Notes under the pieces: generated by a model
Told to the model about the DNA's origin: nothing
What the model saw: the letters and a program-made list of their open reading frames with translations, nothing else
The model's database searches: none
Shown: positions 3,992 to 34,492 of the stretch, one piece after another
How the letters are laid out: every line of letters starts with the position of its first letter
How positions within the stretch are numbered: the first letter of the stretch is position 1
NCBI GenBank assembly: GCA_964598195.1
Contig: CAZRBF010000001.1
Location: 5,696 to 41,626 of the forward strand
Length of the DNA stretch: 35,931 nt
Direction of reading: 5' to 3'
DNA from: an uncultured Candidatus Peribacteria bacterium
Lineage (GTDB): Bacteria; Patescibacteriota; Gracilibacteria; BD1-5; UBA2023
Translations under genes and position numbers: made by a program

Positions 3992-5200
3992 ATGAGTCCT
4001 CTCCATAGACCAAAAACACTACGTGAATCTGTTTCAGCAGTTATGAAGGCTACCTGAGTAAAGAAACTTACAAAATTTATGTGAGATAAGGTAGAAAGGC
4101 TTGTAGGTAGTATATCTCCAAAATCCGTGGCTCCAGTATTACAACCTGTGCTCGAGGTGGAACAAAGTGACCAAGAAATTCTTCAACCAGTTAATGTATT
4201 GCCAGAAGTGTCTCCCACTAATAAATCGGCAGAAGTTATACCGTTTAAACCCATTAAGCCGATCTTGGCGATCGACAATACGCTCAGAACCATTGATACC
4301 TCTGAAACTTTTATGGAAACAGTATTACAAAATGCAGCGTACGTTATTGCAGACAAACTCCGTACCGACGATACCATCAAAGATCTTGTAGAGAGTGTTC
4401 GTAAAGATTTTGTAAATATGATCCGAGAAATAGAATGAAGAACGAGTCTTTCAGAAAAAAAGAAACTTACACTCATCGGACCAAAGTGACTCAATATCAC
4501 TCTGTGTATTTCAAATGAGGCTATCGGTGAATATAAATACATAATAGGAAACCTGAAAAAAGATTGTAATGTAGTCTATGGTGTCAATGGGGTGAGCATA
4601 GATAAAGCAGATCCAGGCTGTTTTTGATACTCTTTTGTAGAAGATGGGATTCAGATGATCTTTGAACTCGATCCAGGAAAAAGCAGTTTTGATACACATG
4701 GAGAAAGTGCAAAAAAATATTTTAATTTATTGGAAGGAGGTTTTCCTTTGTTGTGATGAGCATTTCTTCAGTGAATACGAGAAATCAACAATGAGATCAG
4801 TGCGCTCTATACAGACTCTGATACGGGGTTACTGAATCACTTGGCCTACAAGAAAACAAAAGAAGCCTTAGAAAAAGAGTTAAAAATATCGTGAAAACAT
4901 TTTACTGAACATGCGATTGAAATACTACCAAACAATCTTGTCATGCACCTACTCGGGGACTATGGAAGAGAGGCTCTTATGAGAATGATAGCTGATACAG
5001 TAAAGCCCCTCGACCCAGATATGACTTTTGCATATAAACACGTGGACAGGAATATGGCGGTTATATTTATAGACAGAACCAACTCACCAGAAATTATAAA
5101 AAAGCTTTCCGAGATTACCGCGGCGATGTCTCGAAGGATTGAAGTAAAAAATGCTCAGGATCTGATAGTAAACGTCGAGCTTATAACCAAAAAACACTAA
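3992..5200 (+). CDS. hypothetical protein (402 aa) with a possible degenerate GGDEF-like C-terminal domain
   Basis: ATG 3992 and ORF fragments 4127..4438 and 4943..5200 are one frame joined by nine TGA codons, with no TAA/TAG in between; TAA at 5198-5200. The C-terminal region DSDTGLLNHLAYKK...LLGDYGREALMRMIADTVK...AVIFID loosely follows the GGDEF-domain pattern but lacks GG(D/E)EF. Confidence 0.7.
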
Positions 5201-5265: not shown

Positions 5266-5667
5266 TTAATGTTTCCACACATGAGTTGATGCTTGAGAGG
5301 TTTTTCATGAAGGTGGCAGGTCTTGTCATCCTTCTTTTGCTCGTTTGGCATTGATTTCCACGGAGGTAGGGAGATTTTCCATTACTTCTAAAGATGATAA
5401 ATATCTATCGTAGTCTGAGTCCTTAAGTGTTACATTTCTTTTATTTTTGATGGTCTTTGTAGGAATCATCAATCAACCTCCTTCCGCACGTTGAGCATTA
5501 ATTGCTACGGAAGTAGGGAGATCTTTTCTTGCTTTTTCATACTCTGTGAGTACATCATAATAGGACCGCACAGTACTAGCTACCACGTCCATTGCAGGAG
5601 TGTTTGTTTCACCTTGTTCAAGATAAGAGATTCTTGTACTCGATGGAACATTGTTTACATGAGGCAT
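5266..5667 (-). CDS. small hypothetical protein with an internal ~30-aa tandem repeat (weak HTH-like N-terminus)
   Basis: ORF 5473..5667(-) ends in TGA. The frame continues through TGA 5326-5328 and 5305-5307 to TAA 5266-5268. Repeat: YEKARKDLPTSVAINAQRAEGG(G) versus VMENLPTSVEINAKRAKEG(G). Alternative ATG at 5671-5673. Confidence 0.55.
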
Positions 5668-5780
5668 TCACATAAGTTGGTAGATTATAGATTAAATCGT
5701 CGGAGATAGTGTATCTGATTATTGAAAATTTGCAAAAGATTTTGTGTGATTTTTTTTGGATGTGTGTAAAGATAAAAATT

Positions 5781-5836: not shown

Positions 5837-5864
5837 AACAAATTTTTGATGAAAGGGGGACTAA

Positions 5865-6140
5865 ATGTCTAATAATGAGAAGTCTGAGGTGTCTCGTGTA
5901 CCATGGTATGCCGAGATACTCATGCTCTGGTTTCTGATAGAAGTGTTCTACTTTAGCTTTAATAAGGCTCGAGAGTTCCGCGAGGTCTTGGTAGAGAATG
6001 GACAAACAGATTTATTGATCTGGGGGTTCGGTTTCTATTTCGTATTTCGGTCGTGTGTATTTGCTTACATGTTCGTTCTCGGGCAGTGCAAGGAGTATAT
6101 TTCTAGAAAGGAGCGCGATAGTGTTAACCAAAACAAATAA
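5865..6140 (+). CDS. small 2-TM membrane protein, first gene of the polysaccharide-synthase operon
   Basis: 91-aa ORF preceded by an AAAGGGGGA SD, ending TAA. Two hydrophobic helices (VPWYAEILMLWFLIEVFYFSF, LLIWGFGFYFVFRSCVFAYMFVL). Overlaps the next gene by 20 nt. Confidence 0.6.
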   Translation: MSNNEKSEVSRVPWYAEILMLWFLIEVFYFSFNKAREFREVLVENGQTDLLIWGFGFYFVFRSCVFAYMFVLGQCKEYISRKERDSVNQNK

Positions 6141-7479
6141 CGAATTTAGCCATTTAGTTGTGGCAATGTTTCTCCATAGCATTGACCCTGATGTATCACG
6201 CATTACCATCGCGTCTCATCTGGAAGCTTTGCTTGCTTTTACGAAAGATGGTGCTACGGCAACATTTGTCATACTCGCGACTAATGAGTCCAAAGAAGGG
6301 GGACAATTCTGGCTTGATGTGAAAACTACTCAGGAAATCGTTGGTGAGTACTCGAGTGACAGAATCGAGGTCATCATCATTCCTCAGGTCAATAAGAAGC
6401 GGGGTGCATACAAGCAACTTTTTGATGTTATTCCATCTGCGAGAAATGTGTCATACTATACACCAGAGCAAATAGTGTTTTGGTTCGTAGATGGCGATTC
6501 AGAAATACCCAAAGAACTGCGTCATTGTTTTTTTGTGGATGTGGCCAGGTCACTCTCTGTCGAAAACAAGATAGGGGGAGTCACGGTTCATAATAAGGTG
6601 AAGGTCTATTCGAACAGTCCTTGGGTCATAGCACTCATGGCATACACAAAAGGTCCAGCAAGGAGTTTTGTTATGCAGGCAAGTCCCAATGTCTTGACTG
6701 GTCGTGGTTCCATGATAATCGGGACTATTGCACTCGATAGGGAATTTCAAAAGCTCGTAGCGGAAGATCTCATTAATCTTACTGGTTTCCTCATTCCTAA
6801 AAAGGAATTTTATTCAGATACTGGGGATGATAAGAGTACATATTATTTCGTACTTATGAAAGGATGGAATGTTCGATATAATCCAGATCTCTACGTAGTT
6901 TGTCATGAAAAGATGAAATGGTTCATCGAGAAGCTCCCAAATATCTGGTCATTTCAACATCCGTCACTTGCTGTACGGTACTGTCGAAATAACCTGAACA
7001 ATGTTCAGAGGCTCCTCAGACTTGGGATGGGAAAATTGGGTTTTACTCGATATATGATGAATTGGGCAGATCGTCACCTGTTCTGGACTCCACTTATAGG
7101 TCCGATATCCACTGCTTTTCTTATGAATGCCTGGGGGTTTGATTATCTCTATGTGTATATAAGTTGGATAGTGGCCACTCGTTCTCTCGCGACATTTGTT
7201 GTCTGTATGGCAACCAAGGAAAGATGGTCCCCATTCTATCCTGTCATATTGATCTACATACAAAATGTTCTATCACTGGTAAAGCTTTGGGCTTTGGTTT
7301 CGGCCAGATCCTTTTGGACGCGTCAGGATAAAAAGATGGTAAATCCAGAAGCTCCAAAAGAGATCTCGGCTTTTATTATCCTTGCAACTATGATCGTCAT
7401 GTTTATAGGTATAAAAACTGGTGTTATATGGGTGCCTGGCTTCCAAGAACTGGTGGTCATAGTTAAGTCATTAATTTAA
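6121..7479 (+). CDS. processive family-2 glycosyltransferase (hyaluronan/chitin/alginate-synthase-like) with C-terminal TM helices
   Basis: GTG 6121 lies 7 nt after AAAGGAG. GT2-type motifs: VVAMFLHSID, KKRGAYK, FVDGDSEIP (DxD), TGDDKSTYY (compare GDDR/TED acceptor motif), AVRYCRNN (Q/RxxRW-like). About 4 hydrophobic helices in the last 130 aa. TAA at 7477-7479. No TGA codons. Confidence 0.7.
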   Translation: MLTKTNNEFSHLVVAMFLHSIDPDVSRITIASHLEALLAFTKDGATATFVILATNESKEGGQFWLDVKTTQEIVGEYSSDRIEVIIIPQVNKKRGAYKQLFDVIPSARNVSYYTPEQIVFWFVDGDSEIPKELRHCFFVDVARSLSVENKIGGVTVHNKVKVYSNSPWVIALMAYTKGPARSFVMQASPNVLTGRGSMIIGTIALDREFQKLVAEDLINLTGFLIPKKEFYSDTGDDKSTYYFVLMKGWNVRYNPDLYVVCHEKMKWFIEKLPNIWSFQHPSLAVRYCRNNLNNVQRLLRLGMGKLGFTRYMMNWADRHLFWTPLIGPISTAFLMNAWGFDYLYVYISWIVATRSLATFVVCMATKERWSPFYPVILIYIQNVLSLVKLWALVSARSFWTRQDKKMVNPEAPKEISAFIILATMIVMFIGIKTGVIWVPGFQELVVIVKSLI

Positions 7480-7495
7480 AAGAAAGAAGGTCAAA

Positions 7496-8938
7496 ATGAG
7501 CGGTAATATTTCTCTACCAGAACCCTCGGAAGGTCAGAAGATACGAGGAGCCAAGATTTCTTGGGTAAGTGTATTCCTGGTCGACAAGAACGGGAATGTT
7601 GGCAAAGAACTAAAAGTCGTCTGGCTTGCCGAAACTGGAACGGGTCTTGGACTGTATAACGCTTCTGAAGATACGTTAAACGTATGGATAGAGTTTTATA
7701 TCCCCGATTGTGACACAAAATATTGGGGATACCAGACACAAATCGCGTTCACAAAACGCGATAAAGACGATGAAAAATGTATGGTTTTCCATATCATTGG
7801 TAACCGTCCCACTCTTGACTTTGGTACATTGCTCCGGCTCAAGATCAAAAATCAAGGGAAACAACTCAGTATACAGGAAATACTGGAAAAAAACGGTCTG
7901 AAAGAATCATCTCATACTCCCAAGAAAAAAAGAAAGGAACCATTTAGATTTACCTCCCTCCATACCAGCATGATTGTGTTGGCTTTGCTTGGTGGTGTAA
8001 CCTATATCCACTATGGAATCCTGGACCATGTGGAAACAGGCACGGTTGCAACGCGTATCGTCACACAGGAGATTCCTTTGACTAAGGGATTGGTTGAGGA
8101 TATCTTGGAGCAAGGAAGCGAGGTCAGGAAAGGGGGAGTACTTGCAAGAGTAGTCGACCCGAACTTGACTGGCAACCTTGGATTGCTCGAGGATAAACGA
8201 GATGAGGCCATAAAAAGAGAGCAAATCCTTCGCAATCAAATTGAAGCACAATCTGTCGATCTGCAGAACAAAAAAGCTATGCTCGAAGAGTCCCGTGCAT
8301 ATCTCCAAAAACGGAAAGATCTTGAGAAGCAGGGATTTATATCGAGTAGTTTGATTCTGTTGGATAAACAAAAAGTTCTCGCTGAAGAGTCTGGGATTGC
8401 GACCATAAGTACGCAAATTCAACAAGCAAAAGTAGAGCTACAAACTCTCCTAAATACTTGGGGCCCAAATTTCACGAAATTACAAAAACAAAAAGGAGAA
8501 CTACAAAAACAAACCAAGGGGTCAACATATCTCGCCAAGTGCGATTGCTATGTCTATTCCGTTGCGTCGGATGTACGGGCGATAACTTTTCAACTCATAC
8601 CAAAAGATCATTTTTATATTGAGGCTGCTCTTCCAAAAGATACAGTGGCACACATGAAAGATGGACAGGTGGTCTGGTTTACACTTCCAGGAAGTAGTAC
8701 TTACAAGAAAGGGGTGTACAAAATAACCGAACTACAAAGAAAAGATCGCATGGGTTTGAGTGGTGAAATATTCGCTGCCACTAAAATGAGCATTATCGTA
8801 ATAAAACCCGATGAACCTATATCGGGCGGAGTTGAGATAATCGGAAAACCCGTTGCACTCATGCTGCACACATCAAGTGTATCAGCAACTATAGAACGTA
8901 TCAAGATTTACTTTACAGCGAATTTTTGAACGTTATAA
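7496..8938 (+). CDS. membrane-fusion (HlyD-family) adaptor with a ~165-aa cytoplasmic N-terminal beta-rich domain and one TM helix (Alg44-like architecture)
   Basis: ATG 7496 after GAAGG. KKKRKEPFRF followed by TM SMIVLALLGGVTYIHYGIL. Lipoyl-like GLVEDILEQGSEVRKGGVLARVVDP, a long coiled coil, then a beta-barrel segment YLAKCDCYVYSV...FYIEAALPKDTVAHMKDGQVVWF. The standard-code stop TGA 8927-8929 is read as Gly under code 25, and the gene ends 3 codons later at TAA 8936-8938. Confidence 0.8.
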
Positions 8939-9047: not shown

Positions 9048-10373
9048 TTATTGACGACCGATCGAGAAGTACAGAAATCCGTGCTTCCGAGGAGTGTTCA
9101 CGTCTTTGTAGATGTTTCGTCCATCAAAAATAACGGGTTTTTTCATGCGTTTCCTCATCTCATTCAAGTCCATGCCCCGAAATTCCTTCCATTCCGTGAC
9201 GATGATCAGACCATCAACATCTGCCAGAGCTCTCATTGCATCTCGTGCAAATGAAACTGCCGGTTCATCTTTGTAGATCTTCATTCCCTCTTTATAGGCA
9301 ACGGGATCATAGCAGACAGCCGTAGCACCACGCTTGACCAGTTCTCGGATAACACTGGTAGATGGAGCTTCGCGCATGTCGTCAGTGTTTGGCTTGAAAG
9401 CCAACCCCCAGATCGCAAACTTCATGCCAACGATATCACCAAAATGAGTAATCACCTTTTGAGCGAGAACCAACTTTTGGCGCTCATTGACTTCCTCCAC
9501 CGAGTCCAGAATTGGGAGATCTACTCCATATTCATGACCCGTGTGAATGAGGGCTTTGACGTCTTTTGGAAAACAAGACCCACCATAGCCAGGACCTGCA
9601 TGGAGAAAATCCATGCCAATACGTCTATCTGTTCCCATACCTTTTCTGATCGCTGTAATATCGGCACCAGTTTTTTCGCACAGACTTGTAAGCTCGTTTA
9701 TGAAGCTAATTTTGGTTGCGAGCATGGCATTTGCAGCATACTTTGTCAGTTCCGCACTCCGTATGTCCATACTCAGGACTTTGTCACGACCGAAGCCGAA
9801 AGAGTTGTATAACTCCGTCATAACCTCAAGAGCACGACTTGAATCAGTTCCGATAACCACTCGATCTGGTCGCATAAAGTCGTCGATAGCCGCCCCTTCC
9901 TTCAAAAACTCTGGGTTTGAAACGACATCAAAAGAAGCCGGTTCACCGCGTTGGGTAAAAAACGCCGATTCGATTGTTTTTCGAACTTTATCTGCTGTTC
10001 CAACTGGAACAGTCGACTTATCGACCACAACAGTATATCGATTCATATACCGTCCAATATTTTCTGCAGCCGATAAGACATGCGAAAGATCAGCTGACCC
10101 ATCTTCACCTGGCGGAGTGCCTACAGCGATGAATTGCACATCGCCATATTCAGCCGCCAACTGGATGTCTGTCGTAAAAGAAATTCGCCCAGCGATCATA
10201 TTTCTCTTGATGAAATCGTCAAGACCGGGCTCATGGATGGGTATTATTCCCTGGTTCAAGTCTTCGATCTTTTTGGCATCGAGATCCAAACACAAGACAT
10301 TATGTCCCACCTCCGCAAAACAAGCAGCCGTAACAAGTCCGACGTATCCGCTACCAATAACGGTAATTTTCAT
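9048..10373 (-). CDS. ugd: UDP-glucose 6-dehydrogenase
   Basis: Intact 441-aa ORF. N-terminus MKITVIGSGYVGLVTAACFAEVGHNVLCLDLDAKKIEDLNQGIIPIHEPGLDDFI, catalytic region GGSCFPKDV, C-terminal WKEFR. TAA stop. No TGA codons. Confidence 0.95.
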   Translation of the reverse strand: MKITVIGSGYVGLVTAACFAEVGHNVLCLDLDAKKIEDLNQGIIPIHEPGLDDFIKRNMIAGRISFTTDIQLAAEYGDVQFIAVGTPPGEDGSADLSHVLSAAENIGRYMNRYTVVVDKSTVPVGTADKVRKTIESAFFTQRGEPASFDVVSNPEFLKEGAAIDDFMRPDRVVIGTDSSRALEVMTELYNSFGFGRDKVLSMDIRSAELTKYAANAMLATKISFINELTSLCEKTGADITAIRKGMGTDRRIGMDFLHAGPGYGGSCFPKDVKALIHTGHEYGVDLPILDSVEEVNERQKLVLAQKVITHFGDIVGMKFAIWGLAFKPNTDDMREAPSTSVIRELVKRGATAVCYDPVAYKEGMKIYKDEPAVSFARDAMRALADVDGLIIVTEWKEFRGMDLNEMRKRMKKPVIFDGRNIYKDVNTPRKHGFLYFSIGRQ

Positions 10374-10554: not shown

Positions 10555-10974
10555 ATGATAATCCCCACCCCTATGACCACTCCAGAGAACCTGAATGATT
10601 GAGATAATTGCACTCGTTTACCACACAATACTGTATGGAAAATAAGAGAACGAGTTTTTGCTCCAGTATCGAGTGTTTTGAATGAATCGGATGTTAAGTA
10701 CTTAGCCAATATGCGTGCGTTTAGAAAGAAACTAAGCGATTGAGAAATCCCAACTGCAAAAAGTGAGAATGAAAAAAGGACAGGTGAATTTGTTGTTGCG
10801 AGAGAGATGGTTGCTAAACCTAGTCTCAGCTATGAGGCAATAATCACATCACTTAATGATAGAGATGAATTCTTGAGCATGATTGCTCGTTGATATTTCA
10901 AAGATAAAACCGTAGCAATAGCAAATGCTTCTGAAGAAAGAAAGGATGGTGAGCCACATGTAACGTTACGCTAA
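10555..10974 (+). CDS. hypothetical protein (139 aa)
   Basis: ATG 10555 opens a frame through three TGA codons to TAA 10972-10974 (MIIPTPMTTPENLNDGDNCTRLPHNTVWKIRERVF...), followed by a strong terminator. Missing from the standard-code ORF track because every fragment is shorter than 60 aa. Confidence 0.5.
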
Positions 10975-12081: not shown

Positions 12082-12909
12082 CTAATTTATGTCATACGGT
12101 GCACCTTTGAGATTTACTGTATCGATTCGGTAATTATCTCCGGTATAACTTGGTCCCCATCTCTTGATGAGATGTGGTGTCTCGTCAGCATTGATATGAA
12201 CAGTATTAGATTGACTCGTGCTCCATGTCGGACTTACTTCTATACTATCAGAATTAATTTTTGTTACCGTGAAGAGACCCCCGGTACTCGTAAACTCTAC
12301 AACGTCTTTTACTCTAAATCCTGTCTCTATTGCGAGCTTTCCACTGAAGGTAAAGACGTTACTTCCACTATTGATAACCCCCGCATAATTATTGGATCAT
12401 AATCTTGGGACATATGTTCCATCTATCAATGACTTCGGACTTCAGCCATTTTCTATGGTTGCAGCCAGTTCATAGTAAGAGCCATTATAATACGTAACTC
12501 CTATCTTGTACGCTGTAGTTGTTTTTGTAGGATCGGAGAAGTTTTCTTGTTTGAGTCAGAGTACATTGTAGTTGACATCACCACCGACATAAGTTCCAGA
12601 GAGTGCCCCATATCACTCTATCCCAGAGAGCCGTATACGACTTCCATTTGCACCAACTGTTGGTCCAGTATTAGTGTGTGTTATAGTGGATCCTGTGCCA
12701 AGTACAAATATATTAACAGGAGACCCTTTGATTATAGAGAGATCTATCGCCTGTTGTATATTTCAGAGATCTGAACTCCGTCGTGAATCTCGGGCATCTG
12801 CGGCCATTCCTTGAAAAGAGAGAAAAGAGACAGTTCCAAGAATCACCAAAATTGTGATGACCACGATTAGTTCCACAAGAGTAAATCCTTTTTGATTTGT
12901 TTGTTTCAT
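12082..12909 (-). CDS. type IV pilin-like protein (prepilin-type N-terminal cleavage/methylation domain)
   Basis: ATG at 12907-12909 (minus). MKQTNQKGFTLVELIVVITILVILGTVSFLSF is the classical G/FTLVE class III signal. The 275-aa frame is joined by five TGA codons and ends at TAG 12082-12084. It lies 30 nt upstream of the lyase-like gene. Confidence 0.8.
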
Positions 12910-23636: not shown

Positions 23637-24746
23637 ATGGCAGATACACAAGTAAAAACACAGGATCCAGCAACTCAGGCTGCGGTTACAGAAATGAAGA
23701 TTATGACTCTCGGTGCTCTTGAACGAGCCGAAGTAGAGGCAACTTTTGCTGAGGCAAAAGACTTTCGATCCATCGGAGAAAAGATTACTGCTCCACTCGA
23801 TAGTATTATCTCCGAAACTGCGAAGATCATCGACAAGGATCCGATAATGAATGTAAATGAGGAACTCCAAACCATGAATACCTCCGTTCAGGCAGTGTAC
23901 AAGGAGATTATCGACAATGACGGAACTATTATGAAGATTGCGAAATCTATTCCACTCATCAGCGGGCTCGCAAAAACACTCGATGCTAAGTGGGACGAGG
24001 CAAGTTTCAATGTAAAATCACTCGAAGGGAAAATCGGAGTTATTTTCTCCGGATTTGACCAAGCATATACGAGTCTGAATACCTCGATCGATATGCAAAA
24101 ATCCTTTCTCGATGGAATCGAAGCCAATATCGGCAAGGTCGTTGCTTACAAGGAATTTCTCGCTGAAAAGATTCTGGAGTTCAAATCAAAAGGAGAATTG
24201 GCAACCAGCGAAGACGAGAAGATGAAATATGATATGTTCCTCCGAAATGTGGAATTCTTTCAGTCCAACCTCGTAGTCCTCATCGGAAACCTCGAGCTTG
24301 CTCGAAAACGTCTTCTGATTCGACTTGATAGTGCCGCAAAGCTCTCTCTTGCGATGAATTCGTCACGACCCATATTCAAAACTCTCCTCTCTACTGCCCT
24401 CATTGAAACCTCTTCACAGAAAGCTCTCGAGGCAAGTATTAAGGCCATAGGAGTTATGGGTGAAACCATCGACAAGATGTCCTCAGGACTCACTGACAAG
24501 GCGATCGAGTCCAGTCGTCGAGCCGAAGAGATGTCTTCCAAGCCGGTTCTCTCGACGTCCGTATTCATCGAAAATGTCACCAAGCTCAAGAATCACTTCG
24601 AGGAAATCGATGCATACCGAGCTCAGGTGAAAATCGAAGCTGACAAAGAGAAAACTCTTTTTGCTGAAGCTAAGACCAAACTTGACAACATCAAGACTAT
24701 CTCCAAGAAAAATCAGGAAGAACTTGCAGAACAACTTTCACAGTAA
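23637..24746 (+). CDS. TelA-family (toxic anion resistance / YaaN-YceH-like) protein
   Basis: 369-aa all-helical ORF. Its length and helix pattern fit TelA (for example LRNVEFFQSNLVVLIGNLELARKRLLIRLDSAAKL..., IETSSQKALEASIKAIGVMGETIDKMSSGLTDKAIESSRRAEE, VLSTSVFIENVTKLKNHFEEIDAYRAQ). TAA stop. No TGA codons. Confidence 0.65.
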   Translation: MADTQVKTQDPATQAAVTEMKIMTLGALERAEVEATFAEAKDFRSIGEKITAPLDSIISETAKIIDKDPIMNVNEELQTMNTSVQAVYKEIIDNDGTIMKIAKSIPLISGLAKTLDAKWDEASFNVKSLEGKIGVIFSGFDQAYTSLNTSIDMQKSFLDGIEANIGKVVAYKEFLAEKILEFKSKGELATSEDEKMKYDMFLRNVEFFQSNLVVLIGNLELARKRLLIRLDSAAKLSLAMNSSRPIFKTLLSTALIETSSQKALEASIKAIGVMGETIDKMSSGLTDKAIESSRRAEEMSSKPVLSTSVFIENVTKLKNHFEEIDAYRAQVKIEADKEKTLFAEAKTKLDNIKTISKKNQEELAEQLSQ

Positions 24747-24811: not shown

Positions 24812-25555
24812 ATGGAAGAACTATCTAATACTGCTCTACAAGAAATAAAAGACTTACAACAAAAAGATGTTTTTCAATTTGTTTTGGTTCACTTTTGAAT
24901 ATTGCTATTATCTTTATTTGTAATATTTTTTGTATCGTCTATTATCTCTGGAATATTGAATTTAAGTAGGGATTTCTTTGGATTGAGTTTAGTGTGATAT
25001 TCTATCGCAGCTATTATCTATGCAGTATGGATTTTTTATACTATTTTTTTCAGATATGATCGTATGATCAATAGATTTAATCAAGAAATTCAAATTATTA
25101 AAAATAAAAAAGATTTTATAGAAGAACAATTTATGGAACTTACATGATATATAGAGAAGGATATTAATGAGATGGGTATTGATAATTGATTGGTAATGAA
25201 AATAAAAATGAGCATTGATACTATTCGTAACAATATCACAGACTATGTAGTATCTGTAAAAAAACTTGGAATTAGCAAAGAATTCTCTTGATTGATAGTT
25301 AACTCTAAAAAATTTCTTGATTTACAAGTAAAGTTTACCACTTCTATTTTACAGGAGATGAATTTTTGACAACAAAATTTAATACAACTTATCCAATCCT
25401 GGATCTCCCATCATGCAACAGAACTTGCAGAACTCGAAAAACAGATAGCATCACAGGAGCTTGCTACTGAAAATACCGGATGAAAAGTAGCTCTTGAGAT
25501 TTCAAGAATCTCCTTGCAGGAGCATTTGAAGGAGTTAGAGAAGGTGAGGGTTTAA
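24812..25555 (+). CDS. array paralog A: 2-TM membrane protein with conserved C-terminal helical module (XpaC-like architecture, unverified)
   Basis: ATG 24812 opens a 247-aa frame through eight TGA codons to TAA 25553-25555. TMs: VLVHF(G)ILLLSLFVIFFVSSII and SLV(G)YSIAAIIYAVWIFYTIFF. C-terminus: QSWISHHATELAELEKQIASQELATENTG(G)KVALEISRISLQEHLKELEKVRV. Confidence 0.7.
25394..25555 (+). repeat. 162-nt conserved 3' coding module, copy in paralog A
   Basis: caatcctggatctcccatcatgcaacagaacttgcagaactcgaaaaacag...ggagcatttgaaggagttagagaaggtgagggtttaa aligns colinearly with 27006..27167 and 27837..27998. Confidence 0.85.
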
Positions 25556-25571
25556 AAATAACTTATGTGTT

Positions 25572-26342
25572 ATGGTATGATGAATAAATGATAGAACTAA
25601 TCCTCAGATAGAGTGATTTATTCTGAAATTATCAGATCGAAGTATATCGTATCAGGTAATAAAATATAGAATCTTCGCTCTTGCTCTATGTAGTTTTTTG
25701 TATCTTGGAGGATTTATATCTGGGCTCTTTTGATCTAGTATTTTGACATTACCTTTCTGGATTATATGAATCTATTTTTTGCTCTTTTTACCACCAAAAA
25801 ATGAAATTGAAGGTATTATAAACTATACCGTATATCAAATGAGAGTTATCGGAGAACAAAAAATGGCTCTTCAAGATTCCTTTGATCACTTTCTTGAATT
25901 AGGAAAGAACGATTTTAGGGAAACATGAATTAATCCTATACTGGTAACAGATACTGCCAATGAAATTAATGGCATTTCTACAAAAGTACAAACATTCCAA
26001 AAACTTCTCACTGATTTTGATAAGGATATAAGGATATCTGGCAAAGAATGATCCGGTGTACCTCCGATGATGGTTCGTTTTATTCGTTGGCACTTTGCAG
26101 ATATAATTAAAGATTTTATCGTTTCTCAGCAAGAATGGATTAAAGGCGCTGTTCCTATTTTCTCTAAATGAATACAAGCCTTTCTTACAAACCATGCCAA
26201 TGAATTAAAAGAACTTGATACATCTATTTTGAAGCAGGCAGAATTGACGGAGAGCCTCTCAGGACAATGAGTATTAGATCTTCAGAAAGTTCGACTCGAG
26301 AAGCATATCGAGAATCTTGATAAGGTACGAGCAAGATTATAA
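25572..26342 (+). CDS. array paralog B (divergent member)
   Basis: ATG 25572 opens a 256-aa frame through about ten TGA codons (translated codon by codon) to TAA 26340-26342. There are two TMs. C-terminus: QAFLTNHANELKELDTSILKQAELTESLSGQ(G)VLDLQKVRLEKHIENLDKVRARL. Confidence 0.65.
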
Positions 26343-26363
26343 TCTTATTTTTAAAATTTGAAT

Positions 26364-27167
26364 ATGAAACAACACTACATGGAACCAGACATAGAAAAAT
26401 ACGTCACCACTCGCCAAAATCATCTGGAATATAAACGGTTTCAAGGGCTATTTCTTATTGACATTATAGGATATGAAGCATACGCCAATATGAAATCTTC
26501 TCTTTTTTCGGAGTGGTTATTTTCTAAAATTACCATACATTTATTCTCTATTTTTCATATTTTTTGATGATTTTTGCCTATTTTATATTGATGTTATCGT
26601 GTGTATTCTGAACAATCTCTTGAGTCCCTTACATTTCTGTTATTCTTCGTAGCCTTTTGAATAGGATTAATTCATACAGGATATAAATCTTTCCGCAGAA
26701 TAGCCGTATATAAGAAAACTCTCCGTTATCTTGAATCGAAAGATACTATCGTGAGCGAAAGAGAAAAGCTCGAAACAAGCATAGCAAACGATGTAAATAA
26801 TGGTTGAATAGATGTGGCTATTTTGTGGGATATCAAAAAATGCATAGTCTCTATCCTTGAATGATATCGGATTATATCAGTCTCGCATGAATATATATTG
26901 AACCATAAGTGATATTTTGGAAGAATATCCCGAGAATGACAAGAGGTTATCAATAAAGAGTTTCAATGGATTGTCGCTTACTCACAGGAATTTACTCTCC
27001 TTGTTCAATCCTGGATCTCCCATCATGCAACAGAACTTGCAGAACTGGAAAAGCAGATGGAATGACAGGAGCTTTCGACAGAGAATACTGGTTGAAAAGC
27101 AGCACTCGAGATTTCGAGAATATCACTACAGGAGCATTTGAGGGAGTTGGAGAAGGTGAAGGTTTAA
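26364..27167 (+). CDS. array paralog C
   Basis: ATG 26364 (ORF 26358..26567 is its first fragment). The frame was checked codon by codon through twelve TGA codons to TAA 27165-27167. C-terminus: QSWISHHATELAELEKQME(G)QELSTENTG(G)KAALEISRISLQEHLRELEKVKV. Confidence 0.7.
27006..27167 (+). repeat. 162-nt conserved 3' coding module, copy in paralog C
   Basis: Same length and register as the copies in A and D. Similarity between C and D extends about 50 nt further upstream (from about 26958 and 27789). Confidence 0.85.
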
Positions 27168-27206
27168 TTTGGGGTGAGATTTTTTAAAAAGTAATAACCA
27201 TAAGAT

Positions 27207-27998
27207 ATGGATGCTAATAATCTTGAGGATAAATATACTGAATTTCAGACATTATTACTCATTGACCTTATGTGAAATACGACCTATGAGAAGATGAAAT
27301 CATCTCAATTAACAACATTAACATTTTATAAATTTACTATAATTCCGTTAATTCAAATAATCATATGATTATTTATATGTCTCGCTATCATGTGAGAATA
27401 TTTTGATGTAATATTTGGACACTCTGATTTAGTAAAAGATGGATGATTTTCTACGAGCCTAGTTCTCTTTGTTCTATTTTTTTCTTTGGCTTTTTATTGA
27501 TATATAAAGCTCCGTAAGATATTTTTATATAAAAATATTTTTTACTATCTTGACAGCAGAGATTCTATCATTTCTGAAAATAAAAATTTTGAAATTCTTA
27601 TCAAAGAAGATTTTGATAAACACTGAATAGACGCGGACATTATCCTGCGGATTAAAAAATCTATCTCATCTATTCTAAAAGGTTATGCTTTGATTTCAAA
27701 ATACCACAAAGGCACCCAAGAACAGTTATTGAAAATAGGTATGCTTATGCGTATATTTAATGGATGATTAATGAAGATGATTGATAGTGAACTTCAATGG
27801 ATTGTTGACTATTCGCAAGAATTTACTCATTTTGTCCAATCCTGGATCTCTCATCATGCAACCGAGCTCGCAGAACTCGAAAAACAGATAGCATCACAGG
27901 AGCTTTCAACGGAGAATATTTGAGGAAAAGCTGCTCTTGAGATTTCGAGAATGTCACTTCAGGAGCATTTGAAGGAGTTGGAGAAGGTGAGGGTTTAA
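27207..27998 (+). CDS. array paralog D
   Basis: ATG 27207 opens a 263-aa frame through eight TGA codons to TAA 27996-27998. It is homologous to C along its whole length (LLIDLM(G)NTTYEKMKSS versus LFLIDIIGYEAYANMKSS). C-terminus: QSWISHHATELAELEKQIASQELSTENI(G)GKAALEISRMSLQEHLKELEKVRV. Confidence 0.7.
27837..27998 (+). repeat. 162-nt conserved 3' coding module, copy in paralog D
   Basis: Same length and register as the copies in A and C. By eye it is roughly 85-90 percent identical at nucleotide level. Confidence 0.85.
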
Positions 27999-28062: not shown

Positions 28063-29340
28063 ATGCCCATCTCCATCCCACCAGAGCTTTCCTCAAGAAA
28101 TTCGCTCATTCGAGAGTCCGTTGAATCCAGGGGATTCTATCTCTATAACTGGATATCGTTTGAAGAGCTTCGCAAGACGGTTGCGAGGGACTATCTATGG
28201 CTCCTCTCCAGGCTTCTTGTGCCCTTTGGAATAGTCGTAATCCTTGGAGGATTGTACGATTTTTATGTCCTTTGAGACACGAGATTTATCTGGACGATTA
28301 TCTGACTCACTGGAGTGTATACTCTCATATTTTTGGTGATCATCTTTCGCATGATTGCACGATCGTGGACCTTTCTTCATATTTCAAATATAGTATTTAC
28401 CGATACCCATCTTTGAATCGGTGGTCAAATAGTTCCTTATAAGGAGTATGATACAATGAGCGAACAGATTCGTGAATGGGGTGACGAATTTGAAGAAGAA
28501 TTCATGATGCCATCTAAGATAGACGAAAAAATTGGGCAATTCAAGGCCCGGGTATTTACGTGGGGTGCGAGCAAAGAGGAGAAGAAGACAAAAAAAGAAA
28601 CTTCTATGTTAGACAGCTGTGGGAGCTTTGATGGATGTGGAAAGTCAAATAGCTGTGGGGGTCCTGATTGCTGAGACGTTGGAGATGGAGCAATCGTTTT
28701 TGTCGTGATTGTTTTCTGACTCATTGCTGCATACTGGATTTCCATACGAGTATTCTACGCTCTCGGGTGGATACTTTCTTTCCTCATCGGGTGGATATTT
28801 GTTGGTATCATGAAGATGATCGTGATAGTACAATGACGCGAAGAGATGAAAATCCAAGGACTTTTCGAGAAGCTTGAAATACTCGCAAGTGAACTTATTT
28901 CGTCGAAAAATATGATTGTAAAAAGTCTTAAAAGTGCTAATGAATGAGCATGGGACGAGTGAACCAAATGAGTGGTGGATAAGTTTAGTATGACTATCGG
29001 GAAAGCATGGACAGGGATCAATCTTGTGAAGAAACTAAAATCTACACTTGAAAGTTCGAAATACACGAGTATATTTAATTATGAGACATTCGATCTTTGG
29101 ACCAAGGGTCAGATTCTTGAACCCATTAATGAGATGATAGAACTACAGAGTACTTCGCTCAGAAAACTCGAGGATTCTATTTTTACTCTCAAAAATCAGA
29201 TACAAGAGACTCAGAATCCAGCTTTTGTAATTCTACTTGAAACGCAACTCAAACGATTGGAGATCCAACGAAAGCCACTCGAATCTATGCAAGATCAGTG
29301 GAAGGGGGTAGGGGCGAAGATTATTGTTGGAAAGTTTTAA
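28063..29340 (+). CDS. array paralog E: ~4-TM membrane protein (425 aa), long form of the same family, with Cys/Gly-rich insert
   Basis: Fragments 28063..28275, 28456..28674 and 28972..29340 are one frame joined by TGA codons. N-terminal motif PPELSSRNSLIRESVESRGFYLYNWISFEELRK. C-terminal module IFNYETFDLWTKGQILEPINEMIEL...LLETQLKRLEIQRKPLE. TAA stop. Confidence 0.7.
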
Positions 29341-32439: not shown

Positions 32440-33723
32440 ATGTCAAAAGCCAGAAATATCTCCAGGCAACAAGCCTCAAAATCCATCATACTTCCATCAG
32501 AAATCCAAAAAGTTGTGGATGAAAGGGGGTTTTATTTGTATGAGTGGGTGAGTTTTGTTGATTTTTTTCGCTCAATAGGAAAATATTTTGTAGTTGCGGT
32601 TGAAAAAAATTGGGGAGTATTTCTTTTTTTCACATTTCTTATAATACCACTTACTTTTTACTCTTGGTTATTTTTAAAAAATAATCTTATTTTTCAATAT
32701 ATATTGGCGATAGTTCTCTTGGGAATTATTTTATCTATCTTAAAATCTTCTCTGTTATTCTCTCTTAAATATGCCAAAAGTATTCAAGTTATTTTTTTAA
32801 AAAATTCAATTATTTTTAATAAAAAATTGTCCGATTATAAATCTCCAAATAAAGAAATAGTCGTATTATGAAGTATCTTTTTTAAACCTCTTTTAGAAGT
32901 TCAGACACAAGATATTGATAACTATCAGTCTTTTATGTGGACATTGGAGGATAAAAGTAAATGAGATATCGGTGCAGCAGGGCTTATATATATGGTGATA
33001 ATAATATTTTGAGTAACACTTTCACATCGTTGGACTGCTGGTTCTTTTATGGATTTATATCTTCCGCTTACTATCTTTGTTGTCCCTATTTGTGCAGTAA
33101 TGATTTATGTATTTTTTTTAAAACAATTTGAGTACTTGATGCAAATATTCATTTATATATTTTTTTTCATACCATTAGCTATATTCAGTTTCCTTATTAA
33201 TTTTCTTTTCTTTTCCATAATTAAGCTCATCACCTTCTTTACTCACTACACCGAAAACAGCATCAACTCACTATTTTCCTCCATCGAAAAATCTTCCAAT
33301 ATCCTCCAGTGTCAGAAGCAGAAACTTCTTGATTCATTGGAAAATGGAACTGGATTTTATGATTTTCAGAAAGTTTTTTCGCTTCTTTCTCGCTCTGCAG
33401 ACTCGAGCATAATCAATTCTCATAAACTTGAGAAACTACTCAAGGACTCTAAATTCCATGATATCTTTGATTTCGAAATCTACCACTCGTGGATTCGTAA
33501 GCAAGTCCGTGAACCATTGGAACAGATCTTGAATCTTATGGAAGATAACCTTCAGATTCTGAAAGAAACAAAAGAGAAACTCGTAAATCAGATTACTGAA
33601 ACGATTGATCAGAATCTTCGTGCTCCACTCGAGCTTCAGCTGGTAAGAATGGATGAGCAAATAGGGGGATTTGAGAGAAATAGACCTATTCTGAGAGAAT
33701 ATTTCGAGAAATTGAAAAATTAA
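32440..33723 (+). CDS. array paralog F: multi-TM membrane protein (427 aa), long form
   Basis: Fragments 32440..32871 and 33049..33723 share a frame and are joined by three TGA codons. N-terminal motif PSEIQKVVDERGFYLYEWVSFVDFFRS. C-terminal module IFDFEIYHSWIRKQVREPLEQILNL...RAPLELQLVRMDEQIGGFE. TAA stop. Confidence 0.7.
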
Positions 33724-34043
33724 CTTTTCAGTAACCTTTTTAATTCTGGTAAAGAATATTTGATACTACTCCACACAATTTCCTCGTCTATTCAGGCATA
33801 GTCATGTGAAATTCGATTCCTAAATCCAGACATCTCATTAAAGGGGATATTTTTGTAGTCCTGAGAAGTAAGAGATCGGATTTTGAGTCCGCATTCTCAG
33901 ATGTGTTGCAATTGCATACAGCATGCATCAAAAGTTTTCTCATCGTCGTAAAATGCTCATAAATCCATACCTTCAACGTAGCGCTCTATTTTATCGATGG
34001 CATTAAGGATCTCGTACTCGTAATATTGGATATTTTTTTCCAT
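33720..34043 (-). CDS. hepT: HepT-like (DUF86) RNase toxin of an MNT/HepT toxin-antitoxin pair
   Basis: Hand translation gives MEKNIQYYEYEILNAIDKIERYVEGMDL(G)AFYDDEKTFDACCMQLQHI(G)ECGLKI...FRNRISHDYA(G)ID. The RxxxH motif (RNRISH) is present. TAA at 33720-33722 overlaps the stop of paralog F by 3 nt. Confidence 0.8.
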
Positions 34044-34044
34044 G

Positions 34045-34353
34045 TTAAAAAATCGTTATAAGATCTTTTTCTATGTATTCCTTCAAATAAGGATTTATTT
34101 TTCTTTTTGTTACAAAATCCACTTTTTTTACCTTGCATTCTTTCACGAGTATTTCCTGTAAATCTTCAAGAGTCCCAAGGGTAACTCTATTGTCTTTCGA
34201 GAGCTCTATAAGAAGGTCAAGATCGCTATTTTTTGTTGCTTCATCTCGAGCATACGATCAGAATAACGATAAGTGACTAATCCCAGAAGTAAGAAAACGA
34301 TTTTTAATCTTTTCTGATGAAAGTGTTTCTTTTATAGTTTGAGACTGGGTCAT
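34045..34353 (-). CDS. mntA: MNT-type nucleotidyltransferase antitoxin
   Basis: ATG at 34351-34353 (minus). ISHLSLF(G)SYARDEATKNSDLDLLIEL is the GS-x10-DxD minimal nucleotidyltransferase motif. TAA at 34045-34047 lies 1 nt before the hepT ATG. Confidence 0.8.
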
Positions 34354-34411
34354 ATTTTGCATAGTTACTGGTAATTGGTCGTAAGTATACGGATTTTCGA
34401 TATATTTCCAA

Positions 34412-34492
34412 AAATAATTGGATATTTGAGGGGATTTGTGGTAGGATGAGGGAAAAATGAATACCATACAAAATACTTTGTAAAATAATTTT
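34412..34492 (+). promoter_or_regulatory. conserved upstream element, copy 2 (43-nt G-box repeat plus extended -10) in front of paralog G
   Basis: 34412-34454 is identical to 32358-32400. TGTAAAAT (extended -10) at 34479-34486 ends 7 nt before ATG 34493. The same region is also upstream of the divergent mntA. Confidence 0.55.

Follow-up and report, generated by a model that had tools for sequence, protein, structure and literature searches.

A probable minimal Alg8/Alg44-type exopolysaccharide system with a split synthase gene in a CPR bacterium using genetic code 25

The window analyzed in this study, meaning the whole stretch of 35,931 nucleotides from an uncultured Candidatus Peribacteria bacterium (contig CAZRBF010000001.1), contains a cassette of two genes, one for a membrane-bound glycosyltransferase of family 2 (GT2) and, directly downstream, one for a single-pass membrane protein whose outer part resembles membrane fusion proteins (MFPs). 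This cassette probably represents a minimal synthase-dependent exopolysaccharide (EPS) system of the Alg8/Alg44 type in a bacterium of the candidate phyla radiation (CPR) with genetic code 25 (Gracilibacteria/Absconditabacteria type). As judged from sequence and profile comparisons, the pair is homologous to Alg8/Alg44 in the synthase as well as in the transmembrane and MFP part of the partner, and it fails the PilZ/c-di-GMP features and the AlgD/GDP-mannuronate features of that system. The cassette is composed as follows:

5865-6140, + strand: fragment A of the synthase, an N-terminal hairpin of two transmembrane helices (91 aa), recognized by homology to intact synthases and by the helices of a structure model
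6123-6126, + strand: frameshift site, GTTA (4 bases) in place of one codon in intact homologues, i.e., a 1-nt insertion
6121-7479, + strand: fragment B of the synthase (452 aa), with the GT-A catalytic domain, interface helices and about four C-terminal transmembrane helices, recognized by homologues and model
6490-6498 (DGD), 6823-6837 (GDDKS) and 6976-6990 (RYCRN), + strand: GT2 motifs in fragment B, which also contains VLTGR
7496-8938, + strand: partner (putative co-polymerase), 477 aa up to TGA 8927-8929 and 480 aa (ending in FTANFGTL) under code 25, recognized by hhalign and an EmrA profile match
7496-7945, + strand: predicted cytoplasmic, beta-rich N-terminal domain of the partner, about 150 aa, at the PilZ position of Alg44 (predicted strands, low model confidence)
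7967-8023, + strand: single transmembrane helix of the partner, SMIVLALLGGVTYIHYGIL, a hydropathy maximum conserved in 8/8 CPR partners
8159-8515, + strand: predicted extracytoplasmic alpha-helical hairpin, about 115 residues (model helices H222-278 and H284-340)
8540-8548, + strand: C-x-C motif, CDC (C349, C351), from the partner alignment and a motif census

The GT2 motifs that an earlier reading made from the letters of the window (hereafter the sequence-only reading) had pointed out were all located (FVDGDSEIP at 6484-6510, DTGDDKSTYY at 6817-6846 and AVRYCRNN at 6970-6993, in an open reading frame (ORF) ending at 7479). The identities of the GT2 and of the MFP-like partner required family profiles and a structure model, because curated models applied to single sequences miss them. 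For the window GT2, the Pfam model Glyco_tranf_2_3 remained below threshold (24 bits, cut-off 27), no NCBIfam family matched and the single sequence found no match in the PDB, where a synthase profile of 31 sequences retrieved only spurious Rab matches. By phmmer, the only relatives outside CPR were proteins annotated as Alg8 or mannuronan synthase (E ~1e-24 to 5e-7, 22-30% identity). Across CPR and Alg8-like proteins 26 alignment columns are invariant, including DGD, VLTGR, GDDKS, R371 and N375, and the position of the QxxRW motif reads xRRW in Alg8-like proteins and xxRY in the CPR clade (W to Y). In a neighbor-joining (NJ) tree the CPR synthases form a deep sister group. At the level of these homology searches, a distant family relationship between the GT2 and Alg8-like proteins is supported.

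An AlphaFold2 model of the frameshift-corrected synthase (537 aa; predicted local distance difference test score (pLDDT) 87.2, predicted TM-score (pTM) 0.87) exhibits two N-terminal transmembrane helices, a GT-A domain, interface helices and the roughly four C-terminal transmembrane helices that had been expected. Searched with Foldseek against the PDB, this model matched hyaluronan synthases (HAS) from Chlorella virus and Xenopus best (E 1e-12 to 3e-10, TM-score 0.48-0.63), followed by the yeast chitin synthase Chs1, BcsA and plant CesA, with the non-processive GT2s PcManGT and GtrB ranking lower. The modeled fold is thus shown to be that of a processive, channel-forming synthase. Neither Foldseek nor phmmer placed the protein best with non-processive GT2 families, which agrees with the earlier proposal of a processive, Alg8-like GT2. 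As no Alg8 chain was among the PDB matches to the model, the top rank of HAS is read as that of the nearest solved fold, not of the nearest family.

A search of 5.8 billion proteins yielded eight close CPR relatives of the GT2 (552-577 aa, 34-57% identity), all of them intact, and the pair could be studied on eight CPR contigs (the window, L001, L002/3, L005, L006, L007, L065 and L066). Among 185,579 species-representative genomes, the CPR-type synthase was present in one CPR genome, a Gracilibacteria metagenome-assembled genome (MAG) whose contig is the same as L001; the other 51 matches belonged to Proteobacteria and a few other phyla (23-34% identity). No relatives were detected when JGI metagenome contigs were scanned with synthase patterns, the partner sequences diverging too strongly to yield such patterns. 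Several Alg8-like loci come from predatory, epibiotic or obligately host-associated lineages, namely Pseudobdellovibrionaceae, Micavibrio and Rickettsiales MAGs (L020, L025, L037, L049, L050, L021, L029, L040), which may hint at a polymer system linked to cell-cell association.

On all eight CPR contigs the synthase and partner genes are adjacent, with the partner directly downstream. The non-CPR loci examined contained a partner homologue (phmmer E < 1e-8) in 39 cases, 33 of which carry the D/NxSxxG motif, and the three of these partners that were scanned with Pfam were all PilZ-positive. In the proteobacterial loci reached via the synthase, the adjoining gene encodes an Alg44-like protein with PilZ, transmembrane and MFP parts. 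The sequence-only reading had named three outcomes that would speak against it: a GT2 of non-processive affinity, a pair that is not conserved as neighbors and an N-terminal partner domain without a sensor fold. The first was not observed, the second is contradicted by the 8 CPR contigs and 39 non-CPR loci, and the sensor fold obtained no support (see below).

The partner taken alone is a poorly recognizable protein, with one database relative (P0033, 57% identity), no PDB match to its single sequence and scores below the curated cut-offs (HlyD_3: E 0.059, 14.6 bits, cut-off 22.2; TIGR00998: 29.7 bits, cut-off 390.8). Its alignments were built from six, later eight, CPR sequences extracted from the homologous loci; a profile search for further homologues returned 3 proteins only, its candidate list being saturated by coiled-coil words. 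The partner profile, however, matches EmrA (8zar, E 1.8e-6) from the transmembrane helix through the MFP core, and hhalign aligned the CPR partners with 25 proteobacterial Alg44-like partners over the full length (98.7%, E 1.8e-16) as well as over the transmembrane and MFP part alone (98.6%, E 1e-15). In addition, the CxC motif is invariant in all CPR partners and has its counterpart in SPC[DN]C, which is found in 35/39 proteobacterial Alg44-like partners; SPCxC is an empirical signature from this analysis, with no published definition, that marks the start of the second barrel-sandwich half. By these profile comparisons, the partner is an Alg44-type co-polymerase in its membrane and outer parts, and the Alg8/Alg44 layout that had been proposed is borne out to that extent.

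The AlphaFold2 model of the partner, based on an alignment of three sequences, reached a pLDDT of 47 only. The beta-barrel part is poorly modeled and the hairpin is the only confident part (pLDDT 75-89). Foldseek placed MacA and EmrA at the top for this low-confidence model, with AcrA, MexA and LipC also among the matches, a result that is reliable for the MFP part only. In the hhalign alignment the hairpin appears as an insertion, being missing from the short (350-400 aa) proteobacterial Alg44-like partners and present in some long ones. As PKKKRKEPFRF directly precedes the transmembrane helix, the N-terminus of the partner would, by the positive-inside rule, be located inside. The earlier description of this third ORF holds for this basic stretch, the single transmembrane helix, the long helical hairpin and the MFP core; the N-terminal domain is shorter than stated (about 150 aa, not 165). 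The surprise expressed there about an MFP in a cell without an outer membrane is only partly warranted, given that MFPs also occur in Gram-positive bacteria.

It could be argued that the MFP-like protein stems from an unrelated efflux or type-I-like export system and stands beside the GT2 by chance, as its best PDB matches are the drug-efflux adaptors EmrA and MacA. This is very improbable indeed: the gene adjoins the GT2 in 8/8 CPR loci, mostly with a gap of 10-20 nt or an overlap, it shares specific homology and the CxC motif with Alg44-like partners, and no ABC, MFS or RND transporter gene is located nearby.

The picture is different for the N-terminal domain of the partner, which the sequence-only reading had compared to a c-di-GMP-binding PilZ domain. 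Seven predicted strands followed by helices (low pLDDT) agree with its beta-rich character. Yet RxxxR and D/NxSxxG are both absent from the CPR partners, the absence of RxxxR having been noted before; the D position is taken by an invariant W (W43, in 'hWhS/AxxxxG') and no Arg pair is present. Pfam PilZ matched none of six CPR partners, compared to 3/3 of the proteobacterial partners scanned. With hhalign, the N-terminal domains alone gave 0.4% and E 0.15 for six sequences, the same as column-shuffled controls, and a non-significant score of 16.9 (E 0.04, 1.3%) for eight. The eight-sequence alignment is in register over the whole PilZ domain, with 'ErI' opposite RxxxR and 'WiS..G' opposite 'DWSxxG'. 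The PilZ protein 1yln appeared at Foldseek rank 42 (E 0.24), obtained with the poor partner model. An exhaustive search of the domain profile against 1.84 billion representatives recovered only its own relatives; marginal matches in giant repetitive proteins were regarded as compositional. The identification as PilZ is thus supported neither by Pfam, nor by motifs, domain-only hhalign (six and eight sequences) or Foldseek. The domain may descend from PilZ, and canonical c-di-GMP binding by it appears very unlikely from its sequence. Pfam scans took in 30 window ORFs, about 30/34 of those of at least 100 aa, and among these 30 no canonical GGDEF, EAL or PilZ protein was present.

In the window, the synthase gene is split. 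An operon of three genes, starting with a miniprotein of two transmembrane helices, had been described for this region. The 91-aa ORF with two hydrophobic helices indeed exists at 5865-6140, but intact homologues and the 1-nt insertion identify it as the N-terminal hairpin of the synthase, and the operon has two genes. The eight CPR homologues are about 130 aa longer than the window GT2 ORF and their N-termini match the 91-aa ORF. Fragment A shares 76% identity with P0002, an intact homologue (residues 1-67), and 41% with P0003; its last five residues (VNQNK, from 6123 on) are out of frame. In the model it forms helices H14-45 and H49-87, with a pLDDT of 92-98 across residues 11-40. When P0002 is aligned to the window by tblastn, the match stays in a single frame until 6122, at 76% identity, and resumes in the +1 frame at 6127; a DNA alignment with the intact gene of L001 reveals one extra base in the window (AGTGTTAACC vs AATG-ACACC). 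The same arrangement of 91 aa and 452 aa is found in a Logan assembly (L064), which is 100% identical to the window, and the same split in the NCBI assembly GCA_020049755.1 (L063), which differs from the window by 14 single-nucleotide polymorphisms (SNPs) without gaps over 7,150 bp. As the split is also found in this non-identical strain, the insertion is real, common to at least two strains and no assembly error.

Fragment B starts with GTG 6121 (the next ATG is at 6166), contains no in-frame UGA and is preceded by AAGGAG at 6108-6113, 7 nt ahead of the GTG, which gene callers also picked as start in two other assemblies. A Shine-Dalgarno (SD)-like motif, AAAGGGGGA, is likewise located upstream of the start of fragment A. 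An SD-driven restart at GTG 6121 looks weak in a genome that is poor in SD motifs and becomes plausible again as the cassette genes are the exception (see below).

The split raises the main alternative, that the cassette is decaying, i.e., that the insertion inactivates the synthase and the window holds a pseudogenized remnant of a system which works only in relatives with an intact gene. The frameshift at 6123-6126 contrasts with eight intact homologues, a segment of about 27 residues ahead of GDDKS in other CPR synthases is missing from the window synthase, and SD-led initiation in only 1/29 genes of the window genome means that a restart is not guaranteed. Decay is nevertheless unlikely. 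Both fragments have uninterrupted reading frames in which all 26 family-invariant residues are retained, neither the partner nor ugd is damaged, and the short loop ahead of GDDKS is also the state of proteobacterial homologues. The break falls, by the model, into the inter-domain linker between the second transmembrane helix (H49-87) and the first GT-A strand (E96), a perfect AAGGAG stands ahead of an in-frame GTG right at the break, and the cassette genes are SD-led in general. Furthermore, the split is kept in L063, where fragment B carries two SNPs and the partner one, all three of them synonymous; this is compatible with continued synthase function, three such changes being too few to prove selection. 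The window strain thus encodes a split synthase, which probably still functions by co-assembly of its two pieces.

UGA is recoded in the window. When stop-to-stop ORFs with a minimum length of 150 aa are added up, table 11 yields 5,829 aa and tables 4 or 25 yield 20,103 aa, and most window genes contain 5-10 in-frame TGA codons. The meaning of UGA was read from the genes for PL14 polysaccharide lyases that accompany the cassette (see below), with standard-code PL14 homologues of Halomonas and Pseudoxanthobacter as reference. In the CPR genes UGA stands opposite Gly in 58/87 aligned cases and never opposite Trp, and the code of the window is therefore code 25, with UGA as Gly and not Trp. Code 25 is known only from Gracilibacteria and Absconditabacteria. 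The partner end at 8938 given in the sequence-only reading is right under this code only and is explained by it. No tRNAs are present in the window, and scans of it for promoters and terminators gave results at chance level only.

Synthase and partner avoid the recoded codon altogether. In six lineages, UGA accounts for 0/371 of their glycine codons, compared to 460/1,625 (28%) in other genes of the same contigs (Fisher p = 6e-48), where the proportion varies between 12 and 73%. The cassettes of L065 and L066 add 0/59 and 0/60, with the helicase gene beside the L065 cassette using UGA in 42/48 glycine codons (88%), and the window ugd has 0/38. Moreover, a strong SD motif (AAAGGAGGA, AGGAGG, GGAGG) precedes 9/12 synthase and partner genes and 1/68 other genes (p = 9e-9); in the window these motifs lie at 5845-5864 and 7475-7495. 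In four cases a TGA is located exactly at the end position of the homologues, and reading through it under code 25 would extend the protein as follows:

Window partner, TGA 8927-8929: 2 codons added
L001 partner: 320 codons added, antisense to a PL14 gene
L005 partner: 167 codons added
L006 synthase, TGA 9427-9429: 18 codons added

The pair thus looks written for standard-code, SD-using translation, whereas the adjoining PL14, pilin-like and GGDEF-like genes look like ordinary code-25 genes. A recent transfer from a standard-code donor was rejected as the sole cause of the UGA avoidance, since GC content and GC content at third codon positions (GC3) of the cassettes track the host contig (e.g., a cassette GC3 of 0.21 in a contig of 25% GC) and the lineages share only 34-57% identity. 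Each cassette has also retained 20-31 GGA codons, which are one mutation away from UGA. Codon optimization for high expression is doubtful, as UGA is the dominant glycine codon in the neighboring genes of L065; ribosomal genes were not found on these contigs. A phage origin was dropped because a scan of viral contigs gave no relatives. The candidates for the signature are an expression-level effect, code-neutrality in a mobile module and translation in another cell. It is a long shot that selection keeps synthase and partner, probably along with ugd, translatable for any standard-code, SD-using bacterium. If this were true and no expression-level peculiarity were involved, the module would be translated outside the normal code-25 regime. 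One option would be a repeated exchange of the module between recoded CPR cells and bacteria with the standard code; in the most radical version it would be expressed in the standard-code host of an epibiont, and the polyuronide thus exported by the host could be digested by the UGA-rich, secreted PL14 lyases of the CPR cell. Elsewhere in the window, the gene for a 369-aa all-helical protein without Pfam match (23637-24746, + strand) also contains no UGA codons; it has a raised GC content (0.44), as the cassette does, and no SD motif.

The neighborhood of the pair is partly conserved. In the window it includes the following genes:

9048-10373, - strand: ugd (UDP-glucose 6-dehydrogenase), convergent with the operon and free of UGA codons; matched by three Pfam domains (E 5e-65), NCBIfam TuaD-like and TIGR03026
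11044-12051, - strand: PL14 polysaccharide lyase with signal peptide and lipobox-like LLTSC, 6 UGA codons; PF21294 (E 1e-45)
12082-12909, - strand: type IV pilin-like protein with N-terminal methylation motif and a beta-rich part of about 240 aa; PF07963 (E 5e-8)
3992-5200, + strand: 402-aa neighbor of the cassette, C-terminal ~130 aa probably GGDEF-like; homologues beside the pair, hhalign

The domain matches of the first two confirm the convergent ugd and the polysaccharide-lyase lipoprotein about 2 kb off that had been proposed, and both links recur in other loci. The window enzyme scores 545 bits against the Burkholderia UGD 2y0e and 191 bits against the GDP-mannose dehydrogenase AlgD (1mfz), and by this measure is shown to be Ugd, not AlgD. 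A ugd gene stands beside the pair in the window, in L002/3 and in Halomonas L009. For a CPR bacterium, the window Ugd is unusually close to the proteobacterial enzyme (Burkholderia BceC, 2y0e), and its gene has the highest GC content of the neighborhood (0.46), which suggests a horizontal acquisition. One to three PL14 genes accompany the pair in the window, L001, L002/3 and L005, and PL14 is also present in the proteobacterial loci L009 and L010; the tandem copies, three in L002 (13508-16322, - strand) and two in L005 (12849-14840, - strand), are UGA-rich, unlike the adjoining synthase and partner genes. Homologues of the pilin-like protein are encoded beside PL14 in L002 (16331-17149, - strand) and L005 (14858-15676, - strand; E 2e-74 to 2e-77), and the gene is absent from the proteobacterial loci.

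The protein encoded at 3992-5200 has homologues of about 320-500 aa in four loci (L001 5964-7226; L002 11873-13384, - strand; L005 11691-12839, - strand; L007 5717-6676, - strand). Its C-terminal part starts with 'DxxTGLxN' and contains neither a GG[DE]EF signature nor the metal-binding Asp. Pfam GGDEF reached E 0.0036 for the L001 homologue, below its cut-off, and no PDB sequence match was obtained. By hhalign, the family aligned with PleD and 6d9m (E 0.0012) at a score of 30.4, with a maximum of 16.1 in 40 shuffles. This part is thus a probable degenerate GGDEF-like domain, and the protein may be a regulatory partner of the PilZ-less system. No homology between loci is seen for the gene at window 10555-10974 or for the small, divergent genes located ahead of the synthase (window 5266-5673 and its counterparts).

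The proteobacterial loci nearest to the CPR cassette are composed as follows: Halomonas L009 encodes Ugd, an Alg8-like synthase, a PilZ partner, PL14, PL5 and a Sel1 protein, Pseudoxanthobacter L010 encodes AlgX, Sel1 (AlgK-like), MFP, GT2 and PL14, and Geminicoccaceae L008 combines a GT2 and its PilZ/MFP partner with an alginate lyase. Most proteobacterial loci have a dehydrogenase of the AlgD type (514 bits to 1mfz in L022; others ~1e-60 to the window Ugd), and these AlgD-linked loci form one large clade in the NJ tree. The Halomonas L009 enzyme, in contrast, is Ugd (E 2e-148). Outside the AlgD-linked clade are the CPR clade, the ugd/PL14-linked L009 together with L008, and the PL14-linked L010. 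PL14 enzymes are alginate lyases or endo-beta-1,4-glucuronan lyases, as described in PMC11890756. From the presence of Ugd instead of AlgD, the position outside the AlgD-linked loci and the glucuronan lyases within PL14, we infer, at roughly even odds within the overall explanation, that the product is a glucuronate-based polyuronide rather than mannuronan or alginate. The polymer corresponding most simply to the mannuronan of Alg8 would be a beta-1,4-glucuronan.

Two other polymers have to be considered. The cassette would make true alginate, a polymannuronate from GDP-mannuronate, if the names of the homologues (Alg8, mannuronan synthase) and the Alg44-like partner were taken literally; many PL14 enzymes are alginate lyases (PMC11890756), and PF05426 alginate lyases occur in L008 and L009. 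However, no AlgD-type GDP-mannose dehydrogenase gene is present in the window or in any other CPR locus, the linked dehydrogenase is a clear Ugd and the CPR clade lies outside the one with the AlgD-type loci. Nor were genes for epimerase, acetylation or export (algG, algI/J/F, algK/E) seen in the CPR loci, as far as precomputed Pfam marks and Pfam scans of most window ORFs of at least 100 aa can tell, many CPR genes being unannotated. Alginate is therefore distinctly unlikely.

The second is a heteropolymer with alternating GlcA, made by a HAS-like GT2 with ugd acting as hasB and the partner as an accessory exporter. HAS itself produces an alternating GlcA-GlcNAc polymer, and Class I HAS are the best structural matches with the same order of parts; the adjacent ugd would fit as well. 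Against this stand the lack of any sequence match to a HAS chain (phmmer, profile vs PDB), sequence relatives that are Alg8-like and the fact that HAS, in the absence of an Alg8 chain from the PDB matches, may be just the nearest solved fold. Furthermore, HAS works without a co-polymerase and needs no Alg44-type partner. The PL14 activities described in the passages considered from PMC11890756 are alginate lyase and glucuronan lyase. A HAS-like product can thus be given little probability, and of the streptococcal hasA/hasB analogy drawn earlier the logic of UDP-glucuronate supply by ugd is retained and the family membership is not.

Under the preferred reading, a minimal Alg8/Alg44-type system, Ugd would convert UDP-glucose to UDP-glucuronate in the cytoplasm, and the membrane GT2 would polymerize the uronic-acid sugar processively and thread the chain through its own transmembrane channel. 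The window strain would produce this GT2 in two parts, with the 91-aa hairpin separate from a 452-aa catalytic and channel part whose translation restarts at GTG 6121; the two presumably assemble in trans. The single-pass partner would act as an Alg44-like co-polymerase, its cytoplasmic domain lying beside the synthase and its MFP part taking over the chain outside the membrane. The hairpins of EmrA/MacA-type adaptors form a tube. By analogy, one may speculate that partner hairpins arranged in a ring lead the chain across the wall or surface layer of a cell presumed to have no outer membrane. The PL14 lipoprotein would trim or clear the polymer, as AlgL and similar lyases do in alginate systems, and regulation would proceed by other means than canonical c-di-GMP/PilZ binding, possibly via the neighboring degenerate GGDEF-like protein.

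Several points weigh against this reading. No Alg8 chain is found among the structural matches, and no full-length Alg8 or Alg44 structure turned up in the PDB copy searched. The hairpin and beta-barrel architecture of the partner is drawn mainly from profile matches, its model being of low confidence (pLDDT 47), and its N-terminal domain has no significant similarity to anything, which makes a regulatory role guesswork. The frameshift could mean that the synthase of the window strain is dead, three synonymous SNPs being too few to demonstrate selection. Furthermore, only two CPR lineages have ugd next to the pair, and the gene might act in a different pathway. The polymer is a predicted one, and sequence does not reveal which sugar an Alg8-like GT2 uses. 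Finally, the NJ tree is crude (BLOSUM distances, midpoint root) and descriptive only.

Further genes were noted elsewhere in the window. Four tandem paralogous membrane proteins of about 250-270 aa, with 7-10 UGA codons each, are encoded at 24812-27998 (+ strand). A C-terminal coiled-coil (…QSWISHHATELAELEKQ…ENTGGKAALEISR.SLQEHL.ELEKV) is nearly identical in three of them and diverged in the copy at 25572-26342, and the two copies scanned had no Pfam match. Three paralogous membrane proteins of about 425-455 aa, starting with '…RGFYLY.W.SF.E…', are encoded at 28063-29340, 32440-33723 and 34493-35860 (+ strand); again the two copies scanned gave no Pfam match. Two of these paralogues flank an ATPase gene (DUF234/ATPase_2) and a toxin-antitoxin pair at 33720-34467 (- strand), consisting of a HepT-like RNase and an MNT-type nucleotidyltransferase (Pfam E 2e-24 and 1e-13).

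If correct, the finding extends Alg8/Alg44-type secretion, until now treated as essentially a system of double-membraned Proteobacteria, to CPR; no description of such a CPR system came up in full-text literature searches that paired Gracilibacteria or Absconditabacteria with Alg8, Alg44 or alginate. The CPR form would represent a minimal core of synthase, co-polymerase and lyase with no outer-membrane parts and no recognizable c-di-GMP switch, and thereby a natural system in which to ask what the MFP domain of Alg44 does. The ugd/PL14-linked branch of Alg8-like proteins, to which Halomonas and others also belong, probably produces a glucuronate polymer for which no bacterial synthase has been defined so far, and an acidic capsule or matrix polymer would bear on the attachment of CPR cells to their hosts. 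Expression in E. coli should need little or no recoding, as synthase and partner contain no internal UGA and ugd is entirely free of it; only the terminal TGA of the partner would end the protein 3 residues earlier. That exactly these genes lack UGA and are SD-led in eight diverged lineages is a statistically very strong pattern, which also bears on how recoded genomes handle particular genes.

Compared with the known systems, the cassette is closest to Alg8-Alg44, which in Pseudomonas aeruginosa and Azotobacter vinelandii interact with each other (PMC4436075). Common to both are a GT2 membrane synthase followed by a single-pass partner with cytoplasmic N-terminal domain and extracytoplasmic MFP-like part, a lyase encoded in the cluster and sequence homology, distant for the GT2 and also seen for the transmembrane and MFP part, as tested via proteobacterial Alg8/Alg44-like homologues. 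The CPR system differs in the lack of PilZ motifs, in Ugd instead of AlgD, in the lack of visible AlgK/E/X/G/I/J/F genes in its loci and in PL14 instead of the PL5 lyase AlgL. Its partner has an extra hairpin of about 115 residues, its synthase has xxRY instead of xRRW and is split in the window, and its host uses code 25. According to a systematic survey of operons for synthase-dependent EPS, alginate operons occur mainly in Pseudomonas, and environmental bacteria have 'atypical' reduced ones (PMC7112194). The closest GT2 relatives outside CPR (E 1e-24 to 1e-14) come from the atypical proteobacterial loci L008, L009 and L010, which share the CxC motif of the partner and have no AlgD gene nearby, with PL14 linkage in L009 and L010 and ugd linkage in L009. 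Unlike the CPR loci, they keep canonical PilZ motifs in the partners and a C-terminal extension of 100-150 aa in the synthases, L009 and L010 retain outer-membrane-associated parts (Sel1/AlgK-like in both, AlgX in L010), and their proteins are only ~25-30% identical to those of CPR.

Class I HAS (CvHAS 7sp9, Xenopus HAS1 8smn) are the best structural match, having a transmembrane hairpin, GT-A domain, interface helices and transmembrane bundle in common with the synthase model, yet without detectable sequence similarity; in chloroviruses, too, genes for a UDP-glucose dehydrogenase and for a PL14 lyase (vAL-1) are present. HlyD, EmrA and MacA share with the architecture predicted for the partner a single N-terminal transmembrane helix and lipoyl/barrel-sandwich halves around an alpha-hairpin, followed by a beta-barrel. 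The partner, however, is paired with a GT2 and not a transporter, has a cytoplasmic N-terminal domain of about 150 aa and the CxC motif specific to Alg44-like partners, and remains below Pfam and NCBIfam cut-offs. Homology of synthase or partner to Pel proteins was not seen, and the GGDEF-like likeness is only suggestive, no conserved RxxD I-site being evident. Pel is controlled by PelD via a catalytically dead GGDEF domain, and the CPR cassette likewise has a conserved neighbor with a probable degenerate GGDEF-like domain. Pel clusters of Gram-positive bacteria finally provide a precedent for synthase-dependent EPS production in cells without an outer membrane (PMC7112168).

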